From Escherichia coli (GTDB lineage: Bacteria > Pseudomonadota > Gammaproteobacteria > Enterobacterales > Enterobacteriaceae), in NCBI RefSeq assembly GCF_003334255.1, contig NZ_QOWU01000164.1: a stretch of 1,323 nucleotides of DNA, one strand, 5' to 3'. The notes beneath the pieces are model-generated. The model did no database searches and was not told where the DNA came from. It saw only the letters and a list, made by a program, of their open reading frames with translations. Shown one piece after another: positions 1,037 to 1,068 of the stretch. The position numbers and the translations under genes are program-made. Every line of letters starts with the position of its first letter. Within the stretch, counting starts at the first letter, position 1.

Positions 1037-1068
1037 GATATTTTGCCGATTTTGTACGCGATGGCAAA
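1037..1068 (+). promoter_or_regulatory. Candidate Q-utilisation/pause region: -10-like element TATTTT (1039-1044) in the initial transcribed region plus a weak hairpin (TTTGCC 1042-1047 / GGCAAA 1063-1068)
   Basis: A -10-like hexamer with the key A at position 2 and T at position 6 lies about +8 to +13 from the predicted TSS. This is where lambdoid late promoters carry the sigma-dependent pause element needed for Q loading. The inverted repeat is seen directly in the sequence; its function is inferred. Confidence 0.3.

Follow-up and report, generated by a model that had tools for sequence, protein, structure and literature searches.

A predicted sigma-70-dependent pause element of a phage-82-type late promoter and its putative IsrJ-like transcript

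Positions 1036-1056 of the DNA analysed here, a 1323-base stretch from an Escherichia coli lambdoid prophage (the window), very probably constitute the sigma-70-dependent pause element and the pause site of a phage-82-type late promoter. We infer the pause itself, its dependence on sigma and the loading of Q at this segment from the sequence. An earlier note on this DNA had proposed a sigma-dependent pause and Q-loading element just downstream of the late promoter, and that proposal is now supported by the presence of a Q82-family gene, by the layout of promoter and terminator, by agreement with the positions published for phage 82, and by identity over +1 to +17 with prophages that carry the phage 82 Q gene. 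As a pause element it is of little consequence, being one more copy of a signal that is among the best studied of all bacterial pause signals. The reading is correct but ordinary: the element is a further example of a thoroughly studied kind, found with a diverged Q allele that differs from 82 Q by 31%.

The late promoter region and its pause element

Matches of 100% to the window are present in several complete genomes, for example that of E. coli strain JE86-ST05. The features of the window are as follows, SL1 being the hairpin that the inverted repeat is predicted to form.

To 326: 3' part of rusA, the leading gene of the window
323-1006, plus strand: Q antiterminator gene of the phage-82 family, 227 aa (ORF list, Pfam, PHROG, RefSeq frame)
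3' of the Q gene: intergenic region, 216 bp
996-1001, plus strand: pR' -35 hexamer TTGCAA, overlapping the last Q codons (promoter scan)
1002-1018, plus strand: pR' spacer of 17 bp, containing the candidate Q-binding element (from conserved positions)
1019-1024, plus strand: pR' -10 hexamer TATATT (promoter scan, 17-bp spacing)
1031, plus strand: putative transcription start, +1 = A1031, the first A of AAATCTG, 7 nt past the -10
1031-1099, plus strand: predicted pR'-to-tR' transcript made without Q, about 67-69 nt (distant IsrJ relative)
1036-1037, plus strand: TG of the extended -10-like element, +6 and +7 (conservation; the 82 pause element is likewise extended)
1039-1044, plus strand: -10-like hexamer TATTTT, predicted sigma-70-dependent pause element, +9 to +14 (conservation, identity to the 82 type)
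1045-1047, plus strand: GCC 'discriminator', +15 to +17 (82 mutational data, family triplet count)
1048-1056, plus strand: AT-rich GATTTTGTA with predicted pause sites T1055 (+25) and A1056 (+26) (82 pauses, conservation)
1039-1048, plus strand: SL1 5' arm, overlapping the hexamer and GCC (folding, complementarity, covariation)
1062-1071, plus strand: SL1 3' arm, TGGCAAAGTA (folding, complementarity, covariation)
1079-1099, plus strand: predicted intrinsic terminator tR', with stem CCCGCC/GGCGGG and a T-tract after it (terminator scan, folding)
From 1223: small ORF, only its beginning inside the window

The gene upstream of the pause element is, judged by its homologies, a Q82-family antiterminator. 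The RefSeq annotation has a frame identical to that of the open reading frame at 323-1006, and the encoded protein matches PF06323 end to end (E = 1.1e-88) as well as PHROG 304, 'anti-termination protein Q-like'. Full-length comparison gives 68.7% identity with the Q protein of phage 82 (X92588) and likewise with phage 434 Q. Of the three unrelated families of Q, PF06323 is that of Q82, which may or may not form a closed nozzle (PMC9388147); a PDB sequence search with the window Q gave no match, and no Q82-family structure turned up. The small downstream ORF matched just a family of unknown function in Pfam, NCBIfam and PHROG searches.

Within the intergenic region, a consensus scan gave one good plus-strand promoter, TTGCAA-17-TATATT, and a terminator scan gave an intrinsic-terminator-like hairpin at 1079-1093 followed by TTTTTT; a terminator lies 3' of the pause region in every related locus that we inspected. 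We place the putative start site at A1031 because this lies 7 nt after the -10, the canonical distance, and because the positions published for phage 82 then fit. It is the sole register that gives GCC at +15-17, G at +24 and T at +25, as published for that phage. With this start, the predicted promoter, pause-like element and terminator are laid out as the late regulatory cassette of phage 82.

Downstream of the start, the window has the order TG (1036-1037), A, TATTTT (1039-1044), GCC (1045-1047) and GATTTTGT (1048-1055). The TGnTAnnnT pattern of an extended -10-like element at +6 to +14 of the non-template strand is present as TGATATTTT (1036-1044), and the GC-rich +15-17 and the T-N-Y at +23-25 are present as GCC (1045-1047) and TGT (1053-1055). 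The earlier note had described TATTTT at 1039-1044, TTTGCC at 1042-1047, GGCAAA at 1063-1068 and a 15-nt loop, all of which are there. Its numbering needs correcting, since with +1 at A1031 the hexamer occupies +9 to +14 and not +8 to +13, and it had missed both the TG, with which the -10-like element becomes an extended one, and the GCC, the phage 82 'discriminator'. The bare motif is not beyond chance frequency in the window, where TGNTANNNT occurs 3 times vs. 2.24 expected from shuffles, so that the case for a pause element rests on position and homology.

The experimentally studied counterpart is the pause at 82 pR', for which the published study gives positions and no printed sequence in its text (Bird, Strobel and Roberts 2016, PMC5001585). 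The 82 -10-like element is closer to consensus than that of lambda and includes an extended -10. Insertions at +9 shift all that pausing needs and insertions at +15 part the -10-like element from the 'discriminator', which places the 82 hexamer at +9 to +14. Changing the discriminator GCC at +15-17 to AAA makes the pause about 5-fold shorter, the AT-rich stretch is given as +18 to +25, and the pauses are at +25/+26, with U at +25; moreover, a one-base insertion at +18 brings a disfavoured G to the pause end, from which it follows that +24 is G (all from PMC5001585). With +1 at A1031, the window agrees with every one of these published positions, including TG at +6/+7 and GATTTTGT at +18-25, and has G/T/A at +24/+25/+26.

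Full-text literature searches for the 82 pR' sequence itself gave unrelated papers or nothing, and the phage 82 entry in GenBank ends with the stop codon of Q; as a stand-in we used prophages whose Q is the same as that of 82. The Q protein encoded by two E. coli prophages is identical to 82 Q at 230 of 230 residues, and downstream of Q these prophages read TTGCAA-AACTGGATTAAAAAGCA-TATATT-TCATAT-AAATCTGATATTTTGCCAATGTTGTA, with AAATCTGATATTTTGCCAATGTTGTA forming +1 to +26 in both. Because this sequence fits all the published positions, it is very probably 82 pR' itself. Phage 82 and the window have in common the Q family (PF06323), the -35 TTGCAA and the -10 TATATT. Compared with the two prophages, the window is identical over +1 to +17 (AAATCTGATATTTTGCC) and at 24 of the 26 positions from +1 to +26, with the same G+24, T+25 and A+26; the differences are at +18 and +21 (AATGTTGT in the prophages vs. 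GATTTTGT in the window). The prophages also have an SL1-like stem and a downstream terminator. On the other hand, the 17-bp spacer differs at 9 of 17 positions (AATAGAACTGAAGATCA in the window vs. AACTGGATTAAAAAGCA in the 82 type), SL1 has 10 pairs in the window vs. 6 in the prophages, the terminator and downstream genes of the window are unrelated to theirs, and the two Q proteins have only the 68.7% identity given above.

In the mechanism that we propose, RNA polymerase would start at A1031 from pR' (TTGCAA-17-TATATT) and would make about 21 nt of RNA, with sigma-70 still bound, before capture. Sigma-70 region 2, together with region 3.0 on the TG, would then read the non-template TGaTATTTT (+6 to +14) as an extended -10, and this capture would anchor the enzyme while synthesis goes on by scrunching, until a stall at T1055/A1056 (+25/+26). 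In the stalled complex the RNA-DNA hybrid would have GCC (+15-17) at its upstream end, and the scrunched state would be favoured by T+23-N-T+25. Q, on a site in or beside the promoter spacer, may transfer to the stalled enzyme, which once loaded with Q would ignore the terminator at 1079-1099 and transcribe the late genes. Without Q, an RNA of about 68 nt would be released, in which the inverted repeat would fold into SL1.

The same logic operates at lambda pR', with an early-transcribed -10-like element, capture by sigma-70 region 2, scrunching to T-N-Y, Q loading and a terminator downstream. The details differ, however: the lambda Q family is unrelated (PF03589), and the lambda pause element, AACGAT at +1 to +6 with the pause at +16/+17, lies 9 bp closer to the start than that of the window. 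In addition, lambda is without the extended -10 TG, has GGG as discriminator vs. GCC in the window, and produces a terminated RNA of 194 nt vs. the ~68 nt predicted here. Phage 21 has the same cassette layout of Q gene, pR', SDPE and terminator (Yin, Kaelber and Ebright 2019), again with an unrelated Q family (PF06530).

Conservation across Q82-family loci

The comparative set comprised 241 loci in all; those of the Q family were drawn from IMG/VR and from GenBank phages, using as queries the window Q and the Q proteins of Klebsiella (58% identical to the window Q), Cronobacter (50%), Morganella (33%) and E. coli phage LLS (35%). A TTG[AC]AA -35 followed by a -10-like hexamer served to anchor 227 loci, and in 219 of these 227 the hexamer starts exactly 43 nt past the start of the -35. 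Clustering at 85% identity gave 25 clusters with a common register, which span E. coli, Klebsiella, Cronobacter and Morganella and have Q identities down to ~33%. This set is diverged enough to have randomised unconstrained sites, because neighbouring positions (-27 to -25, -16 to -13, -5, -3, +18, and +27 onwards) carry less than 0.4 bit across the 25 clusters.

T+6, T+9 and A+10 are each invariant (25 of 25 clusters), G+7 and T+14 are each present in 24 and T+11 in 21, and hexamer positions 4 and 5 (+12 and +13) are almost free, with 0.21 and 0.30 bit. At +15-17 G or C is favoured, GCC being the commonest triplet (79 of 146 unique sequences). Further downstream, T+23 is found in 22 of the 25 clusters and a pyrimidine at +25 in 21, in agreement with the first part of the consensus for scrunched pausing established at lambda pR' (T-3 N-2 Y-1, G+1; PMC9191641). 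Where that consensus has G+1, the Q82-type family has A, and the window likewise has A at +26. The information profile, TGnTATnnT, is the sigma-70 pattern for an extended -10 element, and it is unlike what an RNA seed or protein-coding constraint would leave. The comparative set provides a family-wide logo of the pause element, consisting of TGnTATnnT, GCC and an AT-rich run ending in T-N-Y.

That TATTTT is a chance, functionless -10-like hexamer in AT-rich leader DNA is scarcely credible on these data. The chance-level frequency of TGNTANNNT in the window would suit such an account, as would the z-score of the hairpin, which for the single sequence is not significant. Against it stand the promoter offset, fixed in all but a few of the anchored loci, the invariance or near-invariance of the key positions over 25 diverged clusters in which unconstrained neighbours have been randomised, and the identity to an experimentally dissected element of the 82 type (PMC5001585). 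The predicted promoter upstream of the pause element is conserved too: in the -35, five of six positions are invariant across the 25 clusters and C-32 is present in 24, and in the -10, A-11 and T-7 are invariant. Beyond the clusters, the layout recurs in an Aeromonas phage (Q identity ~32%), as TTGCAA-17-CATATT, TAATTTGATAAATTGCCAAAATTGT and a terminator. No such promoter adjoins the Q-like gene of N15, so the layout does not extend to telomere-phage Q homologues at that position.

The conservation also bears on the site at which Q may bind. The earlier note had warned that the Q-binding element cannot be located by reading the sequence, which was reasonable caution, and homology puts the element upstream of +30. 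When the segment from -31 to +30 of 82 pR' is moved downstream, Q-dependent read-through is kept; Q-binding elements of lambdoid phages are described as lying between -35 and -10, and 82 Q is presumed to be dimeric when it binds DNA (Wells et al. 2016, PMC4914094). The spacers of all 25 clusters have A-29 and A-23, and those of 24 have A-28; there is also constraint at -24 (R), -22 (Y), -21 (W) and -19 and -18 (both A). Elsewhere the spacer differs by lineage, with the types GATT[AG]AAA, GAACTGAA, CAATTAAAT and GCAACAAAAT. The conserved positions are where the binding element of Q82 probably lies, and they make 1002-1018 a candidate for this element in the window.

The inverted repeat and hairpin SL1

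The weak RNA hairpin suggested by the earlier note exists, is longer than was stated and has some comparative support; it does not belong to the Q-loading element. Counting G-U pairs, the inverted repeat comprises 10 pairs, between 1039-1048 and 1062-1071 (+9 to +18 with +32 to +41), and its 5' arm consists of the hexamer and the GCC as transcribed into RNA, plus one further base. Folded alone, SL1 has a free energy of -9.6 kcal/mol (z = -1.4, not significant for a single sequence), and it coexists with the terminator hairpin in the folded 70-nt transcript. Two architectures occur in the family. The 'short' one, found for example in 434, LLS-like, Morganella, Cronobacter and some Klebsiella phages, has no SL1, and its terminator stem starts around +28 to +31. 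The 'long' one has SL1 between the pause site and the terminator and is found for instance in the window class, the 82-identical prophages, a second E. coli class, two Klebsiella classes and Gifsy-1 IsrJ. Between classes the sequence of the SL1 arms varies and their complementarity is kept:

Window class: 5' arm UAUUUUGCCG, 3' arm UGGCAAAGUA
Klebsiella class K1: 5' arm UAUGCUGCC, 3' arm GGCGGCAUG
E. coli class E2: 5' arm UGCCA plus outer helix, 3' arm UGGCG plus outer helix
Class K2/IsrJ: 5' arm GUCG-C, 3' arm G-CGAC

We assessed complementarity between +6 to +18 and +22 to +48 against 3000 shuffles of the downstream part. It was above that of the shuffles in three independent arm types (p = 0.009 for the window type, 0.002 and 0.025; 1.3e-4 by Fisher combination), and the K2/IsrJ stem did not rise above them (p = 0.3-0.4). 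Since the loops are of unequal length, unguided alignment of the hairpin region with MAFFT put the 3' arms in the wrong place; covariation was scored on an N-padded, hand-registered alignment of 27 distinct sequences, which was fitted to the structure and leans towards it. In this alignment 77.8% of cells pair vs. 63.5% in shuffles, none of 500 shuffles reaching the observed value, and both-side changes are found in 5 of the 10 SL1 pairs. The covariation score, again on the structure-fitted alignment, is 0.419, whereas shuffles score 0.184 and slid registers no higher than 0.248. There are few compensatory events, from 2-3 lineages, SL1 pairs are broken by several single variants (L064, L036, L004 and L082), and the plus strand folds better than the minus strand in only 5 of 8 classes. 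Taken with these limits, the data make it probable that some members of the family have SL1 as an RNA structure under selection.

The inverted repeat could, in principle, be a DNA operator for a dimeric protein (Q or a repressor), or create an antisense promoter, TTGCCA-16-CAAAAT, running on the minus strand from 1067 to 1040, and we consider both very improbable. The dimeric binding proposed for 82 Q (PMC4914094) would be in keeping with an operator, and our scan does list a 9-of-12 promoter-like site on the minus strand. However, the arms differ by lineage (TATTTTGCC, ATGCTGCC, GTCGC) and yet stay complementary, the loop length varies from 11 to 15, and many SL1 pairs are G-U, which is meaningful only in RNA; the 82 segment from -31 to +30 also suffices for Q engagement with the 3' arm outside it (PMC4914094). 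We rejected the protein-operator reading because the arms covary and use G-U pairs. As to the antisense promoter, its -35 and -10 look-alikes on the minus strand vanish in the Klebsiella classes, and we regard the TTGCCA-16-CAAAAT site as a by-product of the inverted repeat that is not conserved in other classes.

SL1 might act in cis, either by blocking backtracking or alternative pairings and so serving efficient termination at tR', or by contributing to the NusA-dependent Q82 complex. This would be consistent with the SL1 5' arm always being the RNA copy of the hexamer plus GCC, with the position of SL1 directly between the pause site and tR', and with the maintenance of complementarity by compensatory changes. 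We nevertheless think it improbable, given that half of the family, phage 434 included, has tR' right after the pause region and no SL1; the hairpin is thus not needed for the basic mechanism, and a cis role cannot be general. Because of this half of the family, and because the 82 segment from -31 to +30 is sufficient without the 3' arm, SL1 cannot be required for pausing or Q loading. SL1 is accessory and lies outside Q loading; its most probable role is that of a module giving structure or stability to an IsrJ-like small RNA.

The short transcript and IsrJ

An Rfam scan at a permissive threshold gave one suggestive match in the window, to isrJ (RF01393) over 1028-1098, with a score of 20 bits (E = 0.67) that falls short of the gathering score of 37. 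The 5' end of the isrJ model, uguAaauCUGAUAuC, aligns to the start of the predicted transcript. Relatives of the Klebsiella K2 class score 54-69 bits and Gifsy-1 IsrJ 100 bits. On sequence, the predicted window RNA is a diverged relative of IsrJ and not a member of the family by the Rfam criterion. In the Rfam consensus structure of IsrJ the first stem-loop opens within the hexamer and is in register with SL1, and in the window SL1 likewise forms a stem-loop from inside the hexamer, followed by a linker and the terminator stem. IsrJ of Salmonella Gifsy-1 has the same 5' end as the window transcript (AAAUCUGAUAU...), together with a stem-loop from inside the hexamer, an A-rich linker and a terminator, but its hexamer is TATCGT vs. 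TATTTT in the window, and the sequences of stem and linker differ.

In Gifsy-1, IsrJ is directly preceded by TTGCAA-AACTGGATTAAAACGGC-TATATT-TTATGT, a complete Q82-type pR', and the -35 region at this site reproduces the last codons of the 82 Q gene. By this arrangement, IsrJ turns out to be a pR'-to-terminator transcript of a Q82-type late promoter. IsrJ has been described as a 74-nt RNA implicated in invasion (Padalon-Brauch 2008), and a later study saw its transcription under every one of 17 conditions, which is what a constitutive pR' should give. A start at a Q82-type late promoter would explain the constitutive expression of this virulence-associated sRNA, and this origin suggests where similar RNAs can be found. 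In the literature searched we found no paper in which IsrJ is described as a late-promoter transcript; StxS and IsrK have been so described, and short pR' RNAs have been noted in phages including 82 (Sy et al. 2020). Like the RNA predicted for the window, StxS and lambda 6S RNA are constitutive short by-products of antitermination control, and StxS has acquired sRNA functions (Sy et al. 2020); they belong, however, to other Q families and have no sequence in common with the predicted window RNA.

A broader possibility, which we put forward tentatively and with some doubt, is that the hairpin of +9 to +18 with +32 to +41 is selected and that the short 82-type transcripts make up one widespread prophage sRNA family, including IsrJ and the window RNA. 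If this is true, the 5' ends of these RNAs are constrained twice, as a sigma-70 DNA signal and as RNA, IsrJ gains a defined origin and promoter, and many unannotated IsrJ-like regulators are predicted in E. coli and Klebsiella prophages. The A/C-rich linker of an O157 variant suggested identity with AgvB, the anti-GcvB RNA, which we rejected since AgvB is a convergent sRNA downstream of a moron and not a pR' transcript.

The kinship with IsrJ also raises the question as to whether the conservation of +1 to +17 reflects the seed, or 5' end, of an IsrJ-like sRNA acting in trans and not a sigma-70 DNA signal, with the hairpin and terminator forming the body of the sRNA. The weak isrJ match at 1028-1098, the genuine IsrJ matches of the relatives (54-100 bits), the expression of IsrJ as a 74-nt RNA and its invasion phenotype, and the example of StxS, which shows that pR'-tR' RNAs can be Hfq-binding sRNAs (Sy et al. 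2020), could all be read in this way. A base-pairing seed would not, however, give a pattern in which TG and hexamer positions T1, A2 and T6 are fixed while positions 4 and 5 are free, and the fixed distance from the promoter together with the 82 mutational data (PMC5001585) points to a DNA signal, making the seed an unlikely explanation of the conservation. An sRNA role and the sigma-70 signal are not exclusive, and the former would be an added layer more than a replacement for the sigma-70-dependent pause element.

Finally, the order of genes in Gifsy-1 differs from that in the window. After the Gifsy-1 Q gene (STM2617, 'AntQ') come IsrK, a C4-type antisense RNA and an antirepressor gene (anrP), and only then IsrJ. 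We rejected an 82-type pause element directly 3' of Gifsy-1 Q, as IsrK is there instead, and the 82-type promoter is found ~0.8 kb beyond Q, at IsrJ. The isrK/C4/anrP segment that sets this promoter apart from Q looks like a module inserted between the Gifsy-1 Q gene and its late promoter.

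The promoter spacer and its overlap with Q

Among the 25 clusters of related loci that share the promoter-to-hexamer register, the pR' spacer (window 1002-1018, -29 to -13) has invariant adenines at -29 and -23 and an A at -28 in all but one cluster (24/25), with positions -24, -22, -21, -19 and -18 also constrained. The other spacer bases sort by type in step with Q lineage (GATT[AG]AAA, GAACTGAA, CAATTAAAT and GCAACAAAAT). Based on these patterns, window 1002-1018 is a candidate binding element for the Q82 family, in which Q and its site possibly co-vary. The end of the Q gene overlaps the promoter (window 994-1006): the stop codon (1004-1006) falls within the pR' spacer, and the C-terminal Leu-Ala-Lys is encoded by the -35 TTGCAA. 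In LLS-like phages Q stops ~50 nt further upstream and the -35 is nonetheless TTGCAA, so coding constraint does not explain the conservation of this hexamer. The ~26% identical Q homologue gp40 of phage N15 (L242) adjoins cro, and no 82-type promoter or pause element is present downstream of it.

Pause hexamer variants and a minus-strand site

A subclass of Morganella-type loci (L186-L188, L190 and L177) has the hexamer TATGTG, lacking the final T that is near-invariant elsewhere, and retains the TG of the extended -10. On the minus strand of the window (1067-1040), both arms of the inverted repeat give rise to a promoter-like TTGCCA-16-CAAAAT (9/12 matches), which is not conserved among classes carrying other arm sequences.

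Terminator position and mosaicism

In about half of the Q82 family the terminator stem begins at +28 to +31, only 3-6 nt past the predicted pause site, and at such loci Q would need to act on a terminator transcribed right after loading. Examples are:

L002 (phage 434), 2207-2265, early terminator
L199, related locus, early terminator
L176, related locus, early terminator
L086, related locus, early terminator

Where Q is 99-100% identical to that of the window (L003, L004), the DNA is also identical to the window up to and including the 5' half of the terminator stem. From window 1085 onwards the divergence is complete, which marks a mosaic junction within tR'.

Genes and small RNAs beyond the late promoter

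A second terminator-like hairpin (window 1138-1154) precedes an ORF of 65 aa (window 1223-1323, plus strand; 6244-6441 of the related locus L001) that belongs to PHROG 331, a family of unknown function. Similar DNA occurs in ~2250 E. coli genomes, and relatives of the ORF are labelled TrmB family regulator in some phage records. Rfam matches 3' of Q82-type late promoters comprise STnc100 (80-101 bits), isrI (73 bits) and tRNA genes, at the following related loci:

L044, 2771-2943
L100, 1536-1730
L076, 3279-3375

In Gifsy-1 (L239; NC_010392.1 32300-34400), a complete Q82-type late promoter lies directly before the Salmonella sRNA IsrJ (minus strand, 1213 to 1107; 100 bits against RF01393), whose 5' start is the pause element. 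Between the Gifsy-1 Q gene and this promoter lies an isrK/C4 antisense RNA/antirepressor module, as if inserted there. Annotated small RNAs are abundant in the 'moron' region near the Q82-type late promoter.
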